Shown in pieces: positions 1-27,215 of a DNA stretch of 64,000 bases. Source of the stretch: a virus. Lineage: Duplodnaviria > Heunggongvirae > Uroviricota > Caudoviricetes. The translations under genes were made by a program, and so were the position numbers. Each line of letters begins with the position of its first letter. Position 1 is the first letter of the stretch. The stretch spans positions 201,867 through 265,866 of the IMG/VR virus record IMGVR_UViG_3300029935_000001. One strand, 5' to 3'. Under the pieces are notes generated by a model, which ran no database searches, was not told the DNA's origin, and was given only the letters and a program-made list of their open reading frames with translations.

Positions 1-536
1 ACATAGTCGATGAACCTGCACACCCGTTAACTATTCCAGAAGAGGTTGCAACCCAAGCGAAACCATCGTATACTGCTAATTATACTCCGGTCGAAGTAAC
101 TTTTGAGGATATACAACAGCTTGCTGGCCCGGTTAAAGACCTAGTCTCTGTTGATCTTCCTAGCGAGCCAAAACTTTCGTTAGTGCAGGAAATGGCACAT
201 GCTCAACGAGAGGAATCAGCTGCAATTGTTAACCCAACTAATCTTAGCACCACTGATTGCCAATTTGGTGTTAAATTTCCGCTAGTTGCAAACAAAGGGG
301 ATTTATTTTTGCGAGTAGACTTTCTCCCAACTAAACTGTTTAAGTTTAACGGAAGCAAGTGGATTGAAGTTAACAAACAAAACACAGACCAATACGCATA
401 CAACGATGCTTATATCGAAATGCTCATAAGTAAGATTAGTAAAGGCGAATACGAGCCAGACTGGTTGAGTGATATTGAGCGCCAACAAATCGAAACGGTA
501 CTGCAACAAGATCCAAACACAAAAGGTAATGTATGA
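1..536 (+). CDS. hypothetical protein, 5'-truncated at window edge
   Basis: The reading frame of ORF 183..536 stays open back to position 3 with no stop (IVDEPAHPLTIPEEV...), so the gene starts upstream of the window. Confidence 0.5.
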   Translation, partial: IVDEPAHPLTIPEEVATQAKPSYTANYTPVEVTFEDIQQLAGPVKDLVSVDLPSEPKLSLVQEMAHAQREESAAIVNPTNLSTTDCQFGVKFPLVANKGDLFLRVDFLPTKLFKFNGSKWIEVNKQNTDQYAYNDAYIEMLISKISKGEYEPDWLSDIERQQIETVLQQDPNTKGNV

Positions 537-1741
537 GAACTGATGAAAATTACGAACACTGTTCATTTTGCGGAAAGCACAAAGACGCAGTAAAACGCCT
601 GATCGTCGGTAACGATGTTGGGATCTGCGACGAGTGTGTGTCTATGTGCAGCGAGTTGCTCGTGGATCAGCCAGCATCAGATTTGTCATCGCCGACTGAG
701 GAGTCCGACGGTACCATTGATCCGATTGCTCTTAAGGCGTATCTTGATCAGTATGTCATTGGGCAAGATGACGCTAAGATCATGCTTAGCGTCGCGATCG
801 CCAACCATTACAAACGCATTCAGCATAGCGCCGCAGATGTCGAAATTGACAAAGCTAACGTTCTTTTACTGGGGCCTACCGGTTCTGGCAAAACCCTTCT
901 AGCCAGGTCTGTTGCCCGTTATTTGGACGTGCCTTTTGCTATTGCTGACGCCACTTCGTTGACCGAAGCTGGCTACGTTGGCGACGACGTTGAAACCCTC
1001 GTCGCTCGCTTGCTTACAGCCGCCGGCGGCGACGTAGCAAAAGCTGAACGCGGTATAATCTTTGTTGACGAAATCGACAAAATTGCTAGGAAATCGGAGT
1101 CGGCATCAATTACCCGCGACGTATCGGGCGAAGGCGTGCAACAGGCCCTGCTCAAGCTGGTCGAAGGGTCAAGCGTGCGGGTACCTACAACAGGCAACCG
1201 CAAGCACCCTAGTGGGGACATGGTTGAGGTTAACACACGCAACATTCTCTTCATTGCTGGCGGCGCGTTTGTTGGTGTCGAAAACATTGTTAAATCACGA
1301 AAAGCACCGACGTCGTGTGGGTTCACCTCTGCAGTTAAAACTGCAACTAATGTTGATGTTAGCGACGTAACCCCAGATGATTTGGTCAAGTTTGGTCTGA
1401 TACCAGAATTTGTAGGGCGCTTTCCAAACCGTGTTACACTGCAAAAGCTCACCAAGGAAACTCTGGTGCAAATCTTGTCCAGCGTAAAGAACAGCTTGTC
1501 GTCGCAATACAAAACGCTTTTTCATCTCGACGGTGTTGCGCTTGATTTGCCTGTTGATACCCTCGACGACATTGCGCAGCGCACGTTAAAATCCAACACA
1601 GGAGCCCGCGGTCTTCAGACTGAGCTTGAGCGAATTTTGCTGCCACACATGTTCAACATCAAACGGTATCAACGCGCTGGTATCAAAACTCTTACTATCA
1701 CTCCTGAGATGGTAAATAATCCAAAAGCGCTTGAAGCGTAA
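533..1741 (+). CDS. clpX: ATP-dependent Clp protease ATP-binding subunit ClpX
   Basis: N-terminal C4 zinc-binding domain (CSFCGK...CDEC); Walker A LLLGPTGSGKTLLA; Walker B IIFVDEIDKI; full-length AAA+ unfoldase organisation. Confidence 0.9.
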   Translation: MRTDENYEHCSFCGKHKDAVKRLIVGNDVGICDECVSMCSELLVDQPASDLSSPTEESDGTIDPIALKAYLDQYVIGQDDAKIMLSVAIANHYKRIQHSAADVEIDKANVLLLGPTGSGKTLLARSVARYLDVPFAIADATSLTEAGYVGDDVETLVARLLTAAGGDVAKAERGIIFVDEIDKIARKSESASITRDVSGEGVQQALLKLVEGSSVRVPTTGNRKHPSGDMVEVNTRNILFIAGGAFVGVENIVKSRKAPTSCGFTSAVKTATNVDVSDVTPDDLVKFGLIPEFVGRFPNRVTLQKLTKETLVQILSSVKNSLSSQYKTLFHLDGVALDLPVDTLDDIAQRTLKSNTGARGLQTELERILLPHMFNIKRYQRAGIKTLTITPEMVNNPKALEA

Positions 1742-1754
1742 TAAGGAGGATTGA

Positions 1755-1973
1755 GTGGTTTCTGGCAACACCGTTTATATTAACGATGGCAACGTCGAAA
1801 AAGCGTTGCGCAAATTTAAGAAAAAAGTAGCAGAAAGTAAAATTCTGCAAGAACTTCGCGAGCGCGAACATTATACCAAACCAACTACTGCGCGCAAAGT
1901 AAAAAAAACGCAAGCTCGCAGTCGCTGGCTCAAGCACGTTCGTTCACAACAACTACCTGACGCCAAATTTTAA
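1755..1973 (+). CDS. rpsU: ribosomal protein bS21 homolog
   Basis: GTG start 8 nt after AAGGAGG; basic 72-aa protein; VEKALRKFKKKV...REHYTKPTTARKVKK matches the bS21 signature. Confidence 0.8.
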   Translation: MVSGNTVYINDGNVEKALRKFKKKVAESKILQELREREHYTKPTTARKVKKTQARSRWLKHVRSQQLPDAKF

Positions 1974-2579: not shown

Positions 2580-2882
2580 ATGGCACACACTGAACTCAAA
2601 GAACAAACCAAGCTTCGGGTTGCTGAACCTCCGATGTTTAAGGTAATTTACCTCAACGACGAAGTAACTACTGTGGAATTTGTAATGGCATCGTTGATGG
2701 AGGTGTTTCATTATGCACCTAGCACCGCCGAGCAAATCACCTGGGACATCCACGAAAATGGCGCGGCTGTAGTTGCTGTGCTGCCATACGAACTGGCTGA
2801 ACAAAAAGGGTCAGAAGTCCTGGTGAGTGCGCGTTCAAAACAGTACCCGTTACAGGTAAAGCTCGAACCCGACATGAGCTAA
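2580..2882 (+). CDS. clpS: ClpS adaptor protein
   Basis: 100 aa; PPMFKVIYLNDEVTTVEFVMASLMEVFHY matches the ClpS core (PxxYKVxLxNDDxTxMEFV). Confidence 0.8.
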   Translation: MAHTELKEQTKLRVAEPPMFKVIYLNDEVTTVEFVMASLMEVFHYAPSTAEQITWDIHENGAAVVAVLPYELAEQKGSEVLVSARSKQYPLQVKLEPDMS

Positions 2883-2887
2883 CTTGC

Positions 2888-3658
2888 TCAAATAGTAAAC
2901 TGCCTCGGATAATAGCACAGCGACTGGTTATTTCCGAGGCATTGTTTTGGGTTGCTAGTAAACCGCACGCGACCGCAGTTGATCCCAACTGGATTGTAGT
3001 AATAGCCGTGAACCCACTGAACAATTTTATGTTCTGTGTCTGCGGGGCTAGCTATGGTAAAGAGTAAGCTCGAAGCTGCTGCAAGTTCGCTAGTAATCGG
3101 CGTTGGGTTAACCAGTTTAAGATCTGGAATAGCGCTAGTGACTATACAAATTTTTTGTACATCCGGGTGCCGCTGGAGCTTTTCTAAGGATGATTTTAAA
3201 TAATTGATGTCGTTAATGCTAGCCCCCATAATCAATTTAACCTCGTGCTCGCTGGCATTATGCTTTTGCATAAACAAAGATTGTACATTTATGAAATTTT
3301 CCGAATCTTCGACATTGAAATTTGACCACCCATTGGTGCCGAGAATTGCAACACCGTCGGAAATAATTACTCGATCATGTAAGTAGACTACATTGTTTAG
3401 TTCGTCGGCAATGTCTTCAAGGAACTGTTGGGTTTCGTTTATCGCGCTCCAATTTGCAGAATGTTCGAGCAAGCCGTCGATAAAAAATACGTGTTTGTAT
3501 AGCCCTGACAGGTGTTTTAGTACACTGTGAACAACAAGCAAGTCGCTAGAGATATTTCCTGCTACCACGCAAAAAAGGCTGGTTTGTTGATTTTTAAAAT
3601 CAAAGTGATCCTGGTCCGTTAAATACAAGTCAGAAATGACATCAAAAGAGTAATCCAT
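2888..3658 (-). CDS. metallophosphoesterase-fold protein, predicted catalytically inactive paralog of 26364..27215
   Basis: Block-by-block similar to the downstream calcineurin-like phosphoesterase, but metal-ligand motifs are replaced: DVH->DLY, GD->GN, GNHE->GLLE, HHAP->TSAIP, GHLH->GYYY. Confidence 0.55.
   Translation of the reverse strand: MDYSFDVISDLYLTDQDHFDFKNQQTSLFCVVAGNISSDLLVVHSVLKHLSGLYKHVFFIDGLLEHSANWSAINETQQFLEDIADELNNVVYLHDRVIISDGVAILGTNGWSNFNVEDSENFINVQSLFMQKHNASEHEVKLIMGASINDINYLKSSLEKLQRHPDVQKICIVTSAIPDLKLVNPTPITSELAAASSLLFTIASPADTEHKIVQWVHGYYYNPVGINCGRVRFTSNPKQCLGNNQSLCYYPRQFTI
2902..2950. terminator. bidirectional hairpin terminator between convergent clpS and the minus-strand gene
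   Basis: gcctcgga...tccgaggc inverted repeat followed by attgttttgg. Confidence 0.5.
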
Positions 3659-3683
3659 AATTCTATTTACAATCGAGGAACCA

Positions 3684-4013
3684 ATGTATATTATTTTTGA
3701 CGATCAAGTAACCACTGAGCTACGTGCCCATTATACGTTGCTAGAGTTAGAAACGTTTGATAGCAAGCATGGGCCCCGAACTGCGTATTGCGTTATTGAC
3801 ACCCAGCGGCTTTCAACTGAGGATTTGTTTTACTTGGACAAGTATTCTGAAGTGCATGCAGCCCTGATAAGTAACTACAAGGAAGGCCACTTTGAATTTT
3901 GCCACCAGGCCCTCGAAGTCTTGCGCGGCAAATGGGGCGGGCAAATAGACAGTTTTTATGAAGTGTTAAACAGCCGCGTGTCTGTAGCACCAAAACAGGA
4001 CAGTGTTTTTTAG
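3684..4013 (+). CDS. hypothetical protein
   Basis: ORF with SD-like GAGGAA upstream. Confidence 0.45.
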   Translation: MYIIFDDQVTTELRAHYTLLELETFDSKHGPRTAYCVIDTQRLSTEDLFYLDKYSEVHAALISNYKEGHFEFCHQALEVLRGKWGGQIDSFYEVLNSRVSVAPKQDSVF

Positions 4014-5256
4014 GAAAATAATGGATTTTATCAACGTTGCTGCATTAAACGAATCAGTCTCGCAAACCGTTACGCAAATGGTTGCCGAGCTGCTTTCGCA
4101 CGAAAACGTTCTAGCCGAGCTTAATCGCACCGCAGCCGATGTATTAAGGGCGCAAATCACCGAACAAGTAATGCAACGAGACTTCCAGCCTCTTGTTCGG
4201 GCTGCTATCGAAAAATTTGTTAGTGAAAATACGTTGCCAACTATCGGTAACATTATCGTCGAGCATCACGGGTCAGCTCCAGTTGACTCGTTTATTGCCC
4301 TAGCAGTTGAACACGAAGTAACTCGCATTGTTGCTGCGCTAGCCCAATCTCCAGAGTGGAATGCACAGATACGTCGTTTATTGTTAAACGACGTAAACCA
4401 CGTAATCTCTACTTATATAGACCGAATCGACGTCAACAGTGCAATAGCGCAAGAAATACAAAAATACCTTGCTGCTAAGCACAGTGAATCGTTACCAAAG
4501 TTTGGTATTGTTGATAATACTACTAAACCTGTGATGTCGTTGTCAGACAATGGCGTTGACACCCAAAAACTTGTTTGTTCTGAACTTACCTGCGATACTA
4601 TCGAAGTGACGGACCTGCAAGTTAATGGGCAGCTTAAATTTGATCCTTCTGCACTCAAAGACGAGCTTACGTCGCAAATTGCCTGCCAATTAGTTGAGCA
4701 AGTTACGTCAGTTGCGATTGCGCAAACTAAAGAGATTGTATCTAGCCACCGGGTACAAGCGGATCAAGTATTTACAGGACCGGTTCCGTTACTAGCTGAC
4801 GGTAAACTAAGCCGGCTGGTTACTCACTCGTCACTAGAGTCCGTTGGCGAGCTCGAGTCGTTGACTGTATTAGGCAAAACGGAACTAAACGATACTGTTG
4901 CGGTCTTAAAGAGTCGGGTCGGTATTAACACCGCAATGCCTGATTCTGCGCTTACTGTGTGGGACGAAGAGACAGCGTTGTCATTTGGCAAACACTCTTC
5001 AAACGCGTGTTATATCGGCAGCAATCGAGGCAATAAACTAGTATTAGGGATCAACCGCAAAGGCGTTGTGGAAATTACAGACACTAAAGTTACTGTTCCT
5101 GCGTTGCAAATTAATAAAAATATGGTAGGGTTTAGTAACACAACGCCAGTGCATGCCGGCACCCGCGGAGACTGGTTATGGAACACTGAAGTTACTGACG
5201 CGTCGCCGTATGCGTGGGTGTGTCTTGGCGGTTCTCGATGGAAGGCGCTAAAATGA
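4003..5256 (+). CDS. hypothetical protein, possibly fibre-like structural (Ser/Thr/Gly/Val-rich C-terminus)
   Basis: 417-aa ORF; start overlaps the previous gene; composition resembles phage fibre/receptor-binding proteins (weak). Confidence 0.45.
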   Translation: MFFRKIMDFINVAALNESVSQTVTQMVAELLSHENVLAELNRTAADVLRAQITEQVMQRDFQPLVRAAIEKFVSENTLPTIGNIIVEHHGSAPVDSFIALAVEHEVTRIVAALAQSPEWNAQIRRLLLNDVNHVISTYIDRIDVNSAIAQEIQKYLAAKHSESLPKFGIVDNTTKPVMSLSDNGVDTQKLVCSELTCDTIEVTDLQVNGQLKFDPSALKDELTSQIACQLVEQVTSVAIAQTKEIVSSHRVQADQVFTGPVPLLADGKLSRLVTHSSLESVGELESLTVLGKTELNDTVAVLKSRVGINTAMPDSALTVWDEETALSFGKHSSNACYIGSNRGNKLVLGINRKGVVEITDTKVTVPALQINKNMVGFSNTTPVHAGTRGDWLWNTEVTDASPYAWVCLGGSRWKALK

Positions 5257-5747
5257 GGATAGCTTGGATTGTAGGGCAAAGCGATCAGAATTACGATGTT
5301 GCTGCCCTCAAGGCAATCGGTCCTCTCTGGGGCACTTGGCAGTCGTGGCGGAAGTTTAAAACTGATAACGTAGTAGTAACAGACTTTAGCAAAGCAGTTG
5401 ACTTAACTGGCCGTGCCTTTCATAGTGTTTGTAACTTGTATCTCCCCGAAGACTTGTATCAAGCTGCTCAACGGCCAGCTGGCGTGCGCTTGTTTGCGCG
5501 TCCTGCAGGCGCTGGCGATTTAGCTGCATTAATGGGAGTAGTAGCAACTGTGGCCGACATTGTTCTTATTATTGGGTTGAGGCCGGGCTCACCTAACGAA
5601 GAACGTGAAGTGAAGTCAATTGTGCTAGCACACCCTAATATTCAATGGGTGAGCCTCGATGCCACTGAACCTTTTTTTGGTGGCAATGCTCCGCCAAACT
5701 GCCTAGTAGACACCACTGCTAATGTCTTGGCGATGCTTTCTGGTTGA
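5253..5747 (+). CDS. hypothetical protein
   Basis: The ATG overlaps the upstream stop (aaATGa); the gene's stop TGA lies inside the -35 TTGACT of the next promoter. Confidence 0.45.
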   Translation: MRIAWIVGQSDQNYDVAALKAIGPLWGTWQSWRKFKTDNVVVTDFSKAVDLTGRAFHSVCNLYLPEDLYQAAQRPAGVRLFARPAGAGDLAALMGVVATVADIVLIIGLRPGSPNEEREVKSIVLAHPNIQWVSLDATEPFFGGNAPPNCLVDTTANVLAMLSG

Positions 5748-5803
5748 CTAGCTGCTGCTACGGCGTTATAATAGCTACATACATTACTACTGCGGAGAAC
5801 ACA
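5744..5803 (+). promoter_or_regulatory. sigma70-type promoter (TTGACT-17-TATAAT) plus conserved leader variant
   Basis: -35 at 5744-5749, -10 at 5767-5772; leader agctacatacattactactgcggagaacacaATG. Confidence 0.6.
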
Positions 5804-6202
5804 ATGACTGCGCTCAACGAAACCGATCTTGTCACAGTTGTCGACCAAAGCTTGGGTTTCTTGCAGGCCCTTGCTGAGGTGTATGGCTCCGAGCGCGCAC
5901 AAGAAGCGTGGGCTAAGATAAGCGAGGCCCTCGGGCACGACGTTAGAGACGCAGTGTTCTTAGCTATGCTCGCCGGCGATAACGGTTCGGCTCGTGTGAC
6001 CTTCAAAATCACAAACCAAATCGTTAGCCATCGAGTGGCTGCTATTCGAGCGATTCGCGAGGCTGCATCGCTGGGCCTTAAAGAGGCCAAAGATCTTACG
6101 GATGCGGCAATGATGCGCGCCACTGTTGTGACGTGTAAAAATCGCCAATCAGCAAAAGGCCTGCGGCAAGCGTTGCGAGATCTTGGCATGGAGGCACAGT
6201 GA
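5804..6202 (+). CDS. protein with a ribosomal protein bL12 (L7/L12) C-terminal-domain-like region
   Basis: The C-terminal 70 aa read RVTFKITNQIVSHRVAAIRAIREAASLGLKEAKDL..., closely matching the bL12 CTD (EFDVIL...KIAVIKAVRxxTGLGLKEAKDL...); the N-terminal half is unrelated. Confidence 0.55.
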   Translation: MTALNETDLVTVVDQSLGFLQALAEVYGSERAQEAWAKISEALGHDVRDAVFLAMLAGDNGSARVTFKITNQIVSHRVAAIRAIREAASLGLKEAKDLTDAAMMRATVVTCKNRQSAKGLRQALRDLGMEAQ

Positions 6203-6590: not shown

Positions 6591-6705
6591 TTGTTTAAAA
6601 CGCTAAAAACTGCAAAGTGCGTGCTTACCAGCAAAGTGTCGAGACTTTTGCTGTAAATGTGCTCGATCAGAAATTACATAAACTGTGCTTAAAAAGGAAG
6701 CAATA

Positions 6706-7119
6706 ATGCCCTGGATCACTAATGTGCCGCTGCGCTGGATCGCCGAAGGTCACTACCCTAACCCGGGCTCAAACAGTATGCTGATCCAAATCGTGGACCC
6801 GGCGATGGAGTTTCCTGTACCAGCGACGCCGTTTCGGGAGATTCATCAGTTTGAGTTTCTCGACCTCGAGGACTCCGACGACTTTGCTGAAGAGTTCAAG
6901 ATCACAGACGAGCAGGCTGCCGAGCTGGTCGCGCTCCTGCAGCACGCGCTCAACCAAGGCATGAACGTTATTGTCCACTGTGTCGCTGGAGTGTGTCGCA
7001 GCGGGGCAGTATGCGAGGTTGGCGTGATGATGGGGTTTGATGATGCTGGCGCGTACCGGGCTCCTAACCTCATGGTCAAACGTCTCATGATGAGGTGTCT
7101 TGGCTGGACCTACGATTAG
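6706..7119 (+). CDS. Cys-based protein phosphatase (dual-specificity/tyrosine phosphatase fold)
   Basis: CX5R P-loop VHCVAGVCRSGAV; SD AAAAAGGAAG upstream. Confidence 0.65.
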   Translation: MPWITNVPLRWIAEGHYPNPGSNSMLIQIVDPAMEFPVPATPFREIHQFEFLDLEDSDDFAEEFKITDEQAAELVALLQHALNQGMNVIVHCVAGVCRSGAVCEVGVMMGFDDAGAYRAPNLMVKRLMMRCLGWTYD

Positions 7120-25321: not shown

Positions 25322-25918
25322 ATGACCACCCTTATCCCCATCGTTGTTGAACAAACTGCCCGCGGCGAACGCTCCTACGACATCTTTAGTCGTATGCTCA
25401 AGGACCGTATTGTTTTCCTCAACGGCCCTGTTCGCACTGAGATGTCGCATTTGATTGTAGCGCAGCTTCTTCTACTTGAAGCCGAAGATCCTGAGCGAGA
25501 CATTGTTATGTACATTAACTCGCCAGGCGGCGAAGTCACTGCAGGCCTGGCAATCCTTGACACTATGCGTTTCATCAAGCCTGACGTAGTTACGGTAGTA
25601 ATGGGGCAGGCGGCGTCAATGGGCTCACTGCTTGCATCCTCGGGCACTAAAGGAAAGCGCTATCTGCTGCCCAATGCGCGGCACCTCATCCACCAGCCAC
25701 TCGGCGGCGCCTCGGGCCAAGCCTCGGACATCGAGATCCATGCCAAGGAGATTATCCGCCTCAAGCGCGAGCTCACTGAAATTTACGTAGGCAACACAGG
25801 CAAGACATTTGAAACACTCGAGCGCGACATGGATCGTGACAACATTATGACGGCTGCTGAATCCGTGGCATATGGCCTCGCTGACAAAATCATTACTAAC
25901 CGACTTGACGGGCTATGA
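25322..25918 (+). CDS. clpP: ATP-dependent Clp protease proteolytic subunit ClpP
   Basis: 198 aa; [14 protein letters not shown]; active-site Ser in QAASMGS; His in LIHQP; canonical Ser-His-Asp triad spacing. Confidence 0.9.
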
Positions 25919-26363: not shown

Positions 26364-27215
26364 ATGCCTAAGGTAGCAGTAGTAAGTGATGTTCACCTCG
26401 AGTTTGGGTCTGGAACCATCGAAAACAAAGAAGCTGCAGATATTTTGCTCCTCGCCGGCGATATTTGTGTAGCCGAAGACCTTAAGCGACACCCGGTTGA
26501 CGCTACAGTAGTAGACAAACGAACAAGCCCGCGCCTAGTTAGTGCAATGGCTTATCGCGAGTTTTTCCGCGAGTGTGCTAAACAGTTTGAGCATGTAGTT
26601 TATGTGCTAGGCAACCACGAGCACTATGACGGCAACTACGACGAGTCTTATTCAGTAATTAAGGCAGCACTGGCTGAGATTAGCCCCCGGTTTCACGTGC
26701 TCGAGCAAGAAGCAGTCACGCTTGATGGTGTAGTATTTGTTGGGAGTACCTTATGGACTGATATGTTCAAAGGCGATTCGTTAGCGGTGTATCACGCCCG
26801 CGAGAGAATGAGTGATTACAACTGTGTTCGGGTGGCAAAGAAAAGCTATCGCAAGTTGCAACCTGCTGACACCATGCATGACCACTGGCGCAGTGTTCAG
26901 TTCATCAAGACCGTAGCCGAAAACAATCGAGCTAGTGACACACCTAAGTCGATTGTGGTCGTATCGCACCACGCGCCTGCGTCACTGTCGCTGAATCCTG
27001 CTTATCGCGGTGACTTGCTCAATGCGGCGTATTACTCGGACTTGTCGGATCTGATCCTAGACAACCCAGAGATTCGCCTTTGGATTCATGGTCACCTGCA
27101 CAACGAATCTGATTACATGGTAGGAGATCAGACTCGGGTGGTCTGTAACCCACGTGGATACTACGGCGAGCAGCATGCTGATCGCGAGATTCGCTTAGTT
27201 TATGTTGACATTTAA
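26364..27215 (+). CDS. calcineurin-like metallophosphoesterase
   Basis: All conserved motifs present: DVHLE, GDIC, GNHEHYDG, HHAP, GHLHN. Confidence 0.8.
   Translation: MPKVAVVSDVHLEFGSGTIENKEAADILLLAGDICVAEDLKRHPVDATVVDKRTSPRLVSAMAYREFFRECAKQFEHVVYVLGNHEHYDGNYDESYSVIKAALAEISPRFHVLEQEAVTLDGVVFVGSTLWTDMFKGDSLAVYHARERMSDYNCVRVAKKSYRKLQPADTMHDHWRSVQFIKTVAENNRASDTPKSIVVVSHHAPASLSLNPAYRGDLLNAAYYSDLSDLILDNPEIRLWIHGHLHNESDYMVGDQTRVVCNPRGYYGEQHADREIRLVYVDI

Follow-up and report, generated by a model that had tools for sequence, protein, structure and literature searches.

The window analyzed in this report is a stretch of 64,000 nucleotides from a virus of the class Caudoviricetes (positions 201,867 to 265,866 of IMG/VR record IMGVR_UViG_3300029935_000001). 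Its minus strand carries a gene (2888..3658) for a protein that is predicted to have the fold of calcineurin-like metallophosphoesterases (MPEs), and in which six of the seven metal ligands of these enzymes have been replaced. An earlier interpretation based on the letters of this stretch only (hereafter, the sequence-only reading) had described the gene as a catalytically dead paralog of the phage's own MPE, which is encoded elsewhere in the window (26364..27215). Our analysis confirms the underlying observation, but supports its interpretation only in part. We provide evidence that the gene is subject to strong purifying selection and propose that it encodes a noncatalytic binding protein.

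The gene follows a clpX-S21-hsp20-clpS block encoded on the opposite strand, and its stop codon (2888-2890) lies 5 nucleotides (nt) from that of clpS. On its other side, where translation starts at position 3658, its neighbor is the divergently oriented orf109. The open reading frame is a real gene, and the N-terminus of its product, MDYSFDVISDL, agrees with that of more than 100 homologues. Coordinates of the genes and motifs under discussion are provided in Table 1.

Table 1. Genes, spacer and metal-ligand motif remnants in the window. aa, amino acids.
Feature	Position	Strand	Remarks
clpX	533-1741	+	Pfam
bS21	1755-1973	+	Pfam 1.6e-17
hsp20	2024/2066-2521	+	Pfam
clpS, convergent neighbor	2580..2882	+	Pfam ClpS 2.1e-24; stop 2880-2882
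Gene for ligand-poor MPE-fold protein	2888..3658	-	ATG start; open reading frame of 256 aa
Motif V remnant G218-Y-Y-Y221 (canonical G-H-x-H)	2996..3007	-	Both His ligands replaced by Tyr
Motif IV remnant T174-S-A-I-P178 (canonical T/S-H-x-x-P)	3125..3139	-	His ligand replaced by Ser
Motif III remnant G62-L-L-E-H66 (canonical G-N-H-E-H)	3461..3475	-	Asn ligand and catalytic His both Leu
Motif II remnant G34-N35 (canonical G-D)	3554..3559	-	Bridging Asp replaced by Asn
Motif I remnant D10-L11-Y12 (canonical D-x-H)	3623..3631	-	Asp kept, His replaced by Tyr; from alignments and translation
Spacer between divergent starts of ligand-poor gene and orf109	3659..3683		25 nt; GAGGA Shine-Dalgarno for orf109 only
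orf109, divergent neighbor	3684..4013	+	109 aa; conserved in relatives
ClpP gene	25322-25918		Further along the window
Canonical MPE, all ligands (DVH, GD, GNHEH, SHHAP, GHLH)	26364..27215	+	PF00149 1.4e-10; PHROG 1649 2.5e-54

The ligand-poor protein has no match in Pfam or NCBIfam, and does not reach the gathering score of PF00149 or PF12850. However, it matches PHROG 1649 ("metallo-phosphoesterase") at 2.7e-11, the same family to which the canonical MPE of the window belongs. A direct BLASTP comparison of the two proteins yields a weak alignment (E = 1e-4, 20% identity over 208 aa), and a profile-profile comparison (hhalign) of their families gives a probability of 98.3% (E = 1.3e-14, 209 columns). 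Because the family profile found nothing better than E = 0.27 (for PptH) among PDB sequences, a fold search was needed. An AlphaFold 2 (AF2) model, for which the alignment input consisted of 112 homologues, has a predicted local distance difference test score (pLDDT) of 91.8 and a predicted template-modeling score (pTM) of 0.90, and exhibits the four-layer alpha/beta/beta/alpha sandwich of the calcineurin-like superfamily. In a Foldseek search with this model, the best solved match is Mycobacterium tuberculosis PptH (6unc; E = 2.9e-8, TM-score 0.70), and other matches include MPPED2, Rv0805, Dbr1, GpdQ, purple acid phosphatases and Mre11. Nearly all of the 34 PDB matches at E <= 1e-3 are MPEs. 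Against viral proteins, the model has 38 matches, the majority annotated as MPE-type, with metallophosphatases at E-values down to 9e-15 and TM-scores of 0.74-0.78. Since BLASTP, the shared PHROG, the profile-profile comparison and the fold matches of the model all agree, we conclude that the protein is homologous to MPEs and that the weak similarity is not spurious. The block-by-block alignment of the two genes described in the sequence-only reading is therefore upheld, and its motif strings were verified by translation. Its designation of 26364..27215 as a complete calcineurin-like phosphoesterase also holds, given the PF00149 match and the intact motifs of that gene.

Canonical MPEs bind their metals through seven ligands in five motifs (D-x-H, G-D, G-N-H-[DE], H and G-H-x-H). 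Alignments and translation establish that just one of these seven, the motif I Asp (D10), is left in the ligand-poor protein. Compared motif by motif with the canonical MPE, the sequences are DLY versus DVH, GN versus GD, GLLEH versus GNHEH, TSAIP versus SHHAP and GYYY versus GHLH. The earlier statement that every metal ligand had been lost is thus accurate for six of the seven positions, and needs correction for D10. By its modeled fold, the protein is a member of the calcineurin-like superfamily, but by the ligand set that defines these enzymes, it is predicted not to be a metallophosphoesterase. In the lineage of the window protein, Tyr and Leu occupy the old metal pocket, and all three motif V positions differ between this protein and a 77%-identical relative (GYYY versus GQFL). 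The window protein also departs from otherwise conserved family positions at W21F and D225G. For comparison, a single His-to-Asn mutant of PptH, H246N, is already inactive (PMC8557913).

To estimate selection, DNA of the window lineage was taken from cluster members (a 340-kb ENA contig and Logan contigs, L252-L254), and the nonsynonymous and synonymous rates (dN and dS; dN/dS is omega) were calculated by the Nei-Gojobori method against the 77%-identical relative, L252. For the ligand-poor gene, amino-acid identity to L252 is 0.773 and dN is 0.155, with dS saturated. The corresponding dN values are 0.075 for ClpS, 0.076 for ClpX, 0.043 for Hsp20, 0.25 for orf109 and 0.56 for orf417 (4003-5256). 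Its rate of evolution is therefore about double that of ClpS and ClpX, and below that of orf109 and orf417. Where dS could be estimated in the neighboring genes, it is 1.1-2.7, which implies that omega of the ligand-poor gene is about 0.1 or less. In the closer comparison with L254, dN is 0.002 and dS is 0.025. Among ligand-poor homologues in IMG/VR, the median omega is 0.14 (149 pairs with unsaturated dS), with close pairs at 0.04-0.12, and for ligand-complete homologues the median is 0.059. A cluster of proteins 77% identical to the window protein (P0002) has 25 members, all 257 aa long and with intact frames. In the window lineage as in the large ligand-poor clade, the gene is thus under strong purifying selection. 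The protein combines the two properties of a pseudoenzyme, loss of catalytic residues and purifying selection, and does not exhibit those of a decaying pseudogene (frameshifts or stops in relatives and dN/dS near 1), with a deletion variant in one related locus, L289, as the sole exception. The idea that an inactivated gene has been retained rather than left to decay is well founded in this respect. Two of the checks proposed along with it, on alignment and on selection, have been performed, and they support a shared fold and reveal no frameshift decay in relatives.

Homologues of the ligand-poor protein number 117 in a collection of 5.8 billion proteins, and none carries a precomputed Pfam domain. 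The window protein is homologous to this set over its full length (E-values of 1e-22 to 1e-133, 29-77% identity), and so belongs to the subfamily, whose signature is FD-x-ISDL ... F-x-W ... TS ... G[ND] ... G-x-x-E ... NGW ... D-x-x-Y ... Q-H-D ... P ... D-x-E-x-K ... W-x-x-G ... N. The family was found in at least 547 IMG/VR loci, and because their contigs reach 364 kb, the carriers are jumbo phages. Genomes of more than 300 kb are available for either ligand state, for example IMGVR_UViG_3300027759_000045 with the ligand-complete form and the 340-kb ERZ27247813 k141_189559 with the ligand-poor form. In a collection of 50,697 cultured-phage genomes, the family was not found; a protein search of this collection recovered only canonical MPEs at less than 27% identity, and no near-identical DNA was detected. 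Its best-covered protein match, from Sinorhizobium phage Phosso, was dismissed, as it lies in an unrelated gene context. The same collection contains no ClpS protein above 36% identity, so the phage lineage has no cultured representative there. When the genomes of 185,579 species were scanned with an alignment of the ligand-poor clade (A3), one match was obtained, on a 2.3-kb contig of a metagenome-assembled genome assigned to Candidatus Woesearchaeota (JAHWHT010000106.1). This sole "cellular" match most likely represents a viral fragment that was mis-binned. Members of the family are essentially restricted to viral and metagenomic contigs, and a metagenome scan for close relatives found proteins at 35-37% identity only. 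We found no account in the literature of this clpS-convergent family or of any phage MPE pseudoenzyme, and nothing in papers on moraphages and pmoC phages that matches a clpX-S21-hsp20-clpS module with an MPE-like gene.

Members of the family differ in how many metal ligands they retain. Approximately 40% are ligand-complete (DLH, GD, GN[DE]EH, THT, GHYH), and most of the others retain one or two ligands. Intermediates are also found. One of them, P0018, reads DLH/GN/GNHEH/THT/GHYP, and further partial forms are P0017, P0021, P0029, P0053, P0013 and L082. None of the intermediates retains the bridging Asp of motif II; all have Asn in its place except P0053, which has Ser, and in the ligand-poor clade, this position is Asn in 146 of 146 sequences. 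That clade keeps D10, G34, G62 and E65 at >=99%. Its replacements at the other old ligand positions (H12 to Asn or Tyr, N63 to Ser or Thr, H175 to Asn or Ser, H219 to Thr or Ser) are mostly polar, and the most common residue accounts for 49% of sequences at position 63, 55% at position 219 and 22% at position 221. In an exhaustive profile search of 1.84 billion representative sequences, the relatives that come next in distance proved to be ordinary enzymes, with the motifs DLH, GD, GNHEH, THT and GHxH. Given these canonical relatives and the existence of intermediates, the sequences are best read as a series that would lead from a canonical enzyme to the ligand-complete GN[DE]EH form, then to partial forms and finally to ligand-poor forms.

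The window protein retains long-form insertions that are present in the ligand-complete forms. In a neighbor-joining (NJ) bootstrap analysis, the short (approximately 231 aa) ligand-poor forms are monophyletic in 78 of 100 replicates, and the window protein groups with P0002 in all 100. The window lineage, which may have lost its ligands independently of the short forms, joins them in only 38 of 100 replicates. At short-form loci, a co-directional gene of about 76 aa without a Pfam match lies upstream of the MPE-like gene and overlaps its start (for example, L001 9771-10004). The two form a two-gene unit that has no counterpart in the window.

The relation between the ligand-poor gene and the canonical MPE of the window is a distant one. 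At least 587 IMG/VR loci contain orthologues of the canonical MPE, which are 38-46% identical to it, and across the phage lineage, each of the two genes has its own orthologues at 35-45% identity. The two genes were found together on four IMG/VR contigs. Among the matches listed, and within flanks of 6-10 kb, a separate canonical MPE is present in 19 of 94 ligand-poor loci versus none of 68 ligand-complete loci. A possible linkage of the canonical MPE to Clp genes was rejected, because it is weak (6 of 55 loci within 2 kb). In sister phages, ligand-complete orthologues of the ligand-poor gene occupy the same site, with the same flanking genes, clpS and orf109, and the ligand-poor gene is their positional orthologue. 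The 20% identity, the separate sets of orthologues and the ligand-complete orthologues at the same site all argue that it is not a recent copy of the gene at 26364..27215. This other gene is a distant paralogue rather than the parent, and the two represent old, separate lines of the superfamily. Moreover, since the distant relatives of the ligand-poor family are canonical GNHEH enzymes, descent from an active ancestor of its own is indicated. In the recent sense, then, the term paralog used in the sequence-only reading does not apply.

The genomic location of the family is highly conserved. Among 165 loci retrieved through the protein, clpS is present in all, and is the immediate convergent neighbor in 164. 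The opposite orientation pointed out previously is thus genuine, and the window shares the arrangement of the family, in which the gene abuts a clpX-(S21)-hsp20-clpS block and lies tail-to-tail with clpS, its last gene. An overlap of 4 nt between the two stop codons is found in 134 of the 165 loci, and the spacing ranges from -12 to +8 nt in 162. Insertions are seen between S21 and hsp20, and almost never between clpS and the MPE-like gene. The divergent neighbor is also shared, as orf109 is 45% identical to the divergent neighbor of the ligand-complete gene in L003 (E = 5e-25).

A complementary survey started from clpS. Among 80 loci, a hidden Markov model (HMM) detected the MPE-like gene in 67, of which 65 have it downstream of clpS in convergent orientation. 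The remainder consist of one locus cut by a contig end, one in an unrelated context, the deletion variant L289 and ten clean absences (L256, L257, L258, L260, L270, L285, L292, L293, L312 and L313). In these ten loci, a homologue of orf109 directly follows clpS on the same strand (E = 5e-27 in L256). A rough NJ tree of ClpS places them as one or two groups nested among gene-bearing lineages, which suggests that absence is the result of secondary loss. L289 (at about 3452) differs from L287 (3453-3694) by a deletion of 242 bp inside the MPE-like gene, and the two are otherwise 100% identical over 6 kb; either the deletion is a natural knock-out variant in the population or it is an assembly artifact. 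Between clpS and orf109, the MPE-like gene stands alone as a reverse-oriented cassette. Most relatives keep it, but because it is cleanly missing from ten of the 80 clpS loci, it is accessory and dispensable in some of them.

Signals for expression of the gene were also sought. The sequence-only reading had placed it after a clpS terminator, but this terminator was not borne out. A terminator scan of the window found no more matches between or after clpS and the ligand-poor gene than in shuffled sequence, and in relatives, a terminator-like hairpin downstream of the gene is not conserved (5 of 136 loci versus 6 of 136 for a control stretch). No sigma-70-like promoter for the gene was found on the minus strand of the window, and no Shine-Dalgarno sequence precedes the MPE-like gene in the window spacer or in the upstream regions of 124 related loci. 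In about 48 of these 124 loci, the window included, the ATG is preceded, at a distance of 6-13 nt, by a TAAATA(T) box. This box might serve as a -10 element, in which case the mRNA would have a short leader or none, but the assignment is confounded by relatedness of the loci and by the ribosome-binding site of the divergent gene. Separate regulation of the gene from the clp block, which had been suggested from its orientation, is plausible; no promoter has been identified.

Other genes in the region deserve brief mention. The phage encodes ClpX and ClpS (both within 533-2882) as well as ClpP; ClpS normally partners ClpA. The gene at 5744-6202 codes for a protein of 152 aa with a ribosomal L7/L12 C-terminal domain (Pfam 7.7e-8) that is conserved in L252-L254. 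Together with bS21, this makes two ribosome-related proteins in one phage region, which is unusual. At 6685-7119 is a gene for a 144-aa protein with the Cys-phosphatase signature HCVAGVCRSG and subthreshold matches to DSPc and PTP-type "Swiss Army Knife" models (28.6 bits versus a cutoff of 33.5). DSPc genes are also found in the related loci L001 and L252. The orf417 product is 42% identical to its counterpart in L252 (6798-8051), with the dN of 0.56 given above, whereas ClpX, ClpS and Hsp20 are 88-93% identical. It is a hypervariable gene in an otherwise conserved block, and its sole family match is a weak one, to DUF445. Between the homologues of orf109 and orf417, related loci carry a gene for a 499-aa carbamoyltransferase (Carbam_trans_N/C; L252 8051-9550 and L253 3663-5162) that is not present in the window near 4003.

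We favor the interpretation that the gene encodes a selectively maintained pseudo-phosphoesterase, a noncatalytic binding protein that is probably an accessory host-interaction factor. We assign a probability of roughly 0.6 to the pseudoenzyme core of this proposal, and our confidence in any specific binding partner is much lower. In the mechanism that we envisage, the MPE sandwich is intact and its two-metal center is dismantled, so that canonical phosphoester hydrolysis would be lost. Catalysis may have become dispensable or have been selected against, and a binding role would either have been inherited from the ancestral enzyme and kept, or have arisen as catalysis was lost. Stoichiometric binding of a partner would be the most likely mode of action. 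The protein would then be an accessory factor, perhaps in host takeover or counterdefense, and would be expressed from a transcription unit of its own, opposite to and separate from the clpX-S21-hsp20-clpS block. Several points weigh against this proposal. D10, N35 and E65 are nearly invariant in the ligand-poor clade, and a remodeled polar site might conceivably bind, for example, Mg2+, Ca2+ or an anion. Several residues invariant throughout the family (D6, S27 and D207..K211) were considered as a putative interface and rejected, because they also occur in distant, fully catalytic relatives; they are probably structural rather than markers of an interface. With its departures at W21F and D225G, the window protein may differ in function from the bulk of the ligand-poor clade. 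Finally, the adjacency to clpS may simply reflect inherited gene order; convergent genes are not co-transcribed.

The main rival explanation is that the protein is still an enzyme, whose His/Asp metal site would have been remodeled into another catalytic or cofactor site, for example an oxygen-ligand Mg2+/Ca2+ site or that of a metal-independent hydrolase that uses D10, N35 and E65. The replacements in the large ligand-poor clade, which are mostly polar and nonrandom, are consistent with this explanation, as are the four positions kept at >=99% and the purifying selection on close pairs, which is as strong as in the ligand-complete clade. However, the replacements in the window protein are Tyr, Leu, Leu, Ser, Tyr and Tyr, the contrast between GYYY and GQFL reveals a pocket that is not conserved in its lineage, and the old ligand positions are among the more variable ones in the ligand-poor clade. 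To our knowledge, no MPE-fold enzyme works without a dinuclear site. That a single ligand mutation inactivates PptH (PMC8557913) is a further argument against a remodeled enzyme, which we judge to be unlikely. It is quite unlikely that the protein is an adaptor or anti-adaptor of the Clp module, an accessory that binds phage ClpS, ClpX or Hsp20 or the substrates of these proteins. The tail-to-tail position in 164 of 165 loci would suit such a role, and so would the location of insertions, which separate S21 from hsp20 and almost never clpS from the gene. On the other hand, the two genes are convergent and so not transcribed together, the entire Clp block is present without the MPE-like gene in 10 of 80 clpS loci, and overlapping stops leave no room for insertions, so that the adjacency may be purely historical. 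We consider distinctly improbable a scenario in which a virus-specific phosphoesterase was converted stepwise, possibly repeatedly at a fixed locus, into a metal-free binder that works with or controls phage ClpXP, ClpS or Hsp20, for example by acting as an adaptor or anti-adaptor and retaining, without hydrolysis, host proteins that are phosphorylated or carry some other mark. If true, the ligand-complete, partial and ligand-poor orthologues would be a natural record of an enzyme-to-adaptor transition in phages.

The sequence-only reading had instead envisioned an inactivated duplicate of the phage's own MPE, retained in a role such as decoy, substrate trap or regulator, presumably of the active enzyme. 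The two proteins are indeed homologous and share PHROG 1649, and both genes occur in the same genomes (the four IMG/VR contigs and the 19 of 94 ligand-poor loci noted above). Nevertheless, a duplicate of this kind is very improbable in view of the 20% identity, the separate orthologues of each gene at 35-45% identity, the ligand-complete orthologues at the same site and the canonical GNHEH motifs of the distant relatives. In addition, the window protein and P0002 differ in the old pocket. The substrate-trap idea is itself somewhat disfavored, because the pocket appears to be filled with Tyr and Leu and motif V is GYYY in one protein and GQFL in the other. Moreover, phosphate binding in MPEs occurs largely via the metals, which makes a metal-free trap unlikely. 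A decaying pseudogene or a chance open reading frame is hardly credible. The 242-bp internal deletion in one related genome (L289) and the absence of the gene from some relatives might be taken as signs of decay, but the reading frame is unbroken in the window, throughout the P0002 cluster of 25 proteins, and in the other homologues and loci that were examined. In addition, dN/dS lies far below 1 and the fold is predicted with confidence.

Our proposal that the protein is a pseudo-phosphoesterase has precedents in cellular proteins. Vps29 of the retromer, the B-subunits of eukaryotic DNA polymerases alpha, delta and epsilon, and Plasmodium GAP50 have likewise kept the MPE fold and lost catalytic residues, and they act as binding scaffolds. 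GAP50 (3tgh), Vps29 (8ttd) and PolD DP1 are among the Foldseek matches of the model. These proteins have no specific sequence relationship to the phage family, and represent independent inactivations in eukaryotic cellular complexes. Unlike them, the phage locus retains both ligand-complete and ligand-poor orthologues across a virus lineage. With PptH (6unc), the window protein has in common the alpha/beta sandwich, the order of the five motif blocks and a two-helix insertion between motifs III and IV. PptH, however, needs a Mn-Fe binuclear center, in which H246 is essential (PMC8557913), whereas six of seven ligands are replaced in the window protein, which consequently is not of the PptH type. 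The canonical MPE of the window shares with it superfamily, PHROG and genomes, and differs in position, intact ligands and a sequence identity of 20%. According to its report, gp48 of mycobacteriophage A10ZJ24 is likewise an accessory MPE-like phage protein, expressed early and used against the host (PMC12287305). As described there, gp48 acts catalytically on host DNA, whereas the window protein is without a metal site, and we liken the two at the superfamily level only.

The ligand-poor protein is a new addition to a known kind, the MPE-fold pseudoenzymes such as Vps29, and its family provides a natural series rather than a new principle. Our analysis defines an unannotated, virus-restricted protein family that has no Pfam or NCBIfam model, and corrects the idea that the gene is a spoiled copy of the window's own enzyme. 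Its practical impact is modest before a partner or phenotype is known. Pseudoenzymes have been well studied in eukaryotic signaling, but work on those of phages is very scarce. In hundreds of uncultivated jumbo-phage genomes, the single locus described here presents ligand-complete, half-eroded, fully eroded and deleted states as a comparative series, which bears on the role of the MPE scaffold after metal loss and on the order in which a dinuclear site is dismantled.

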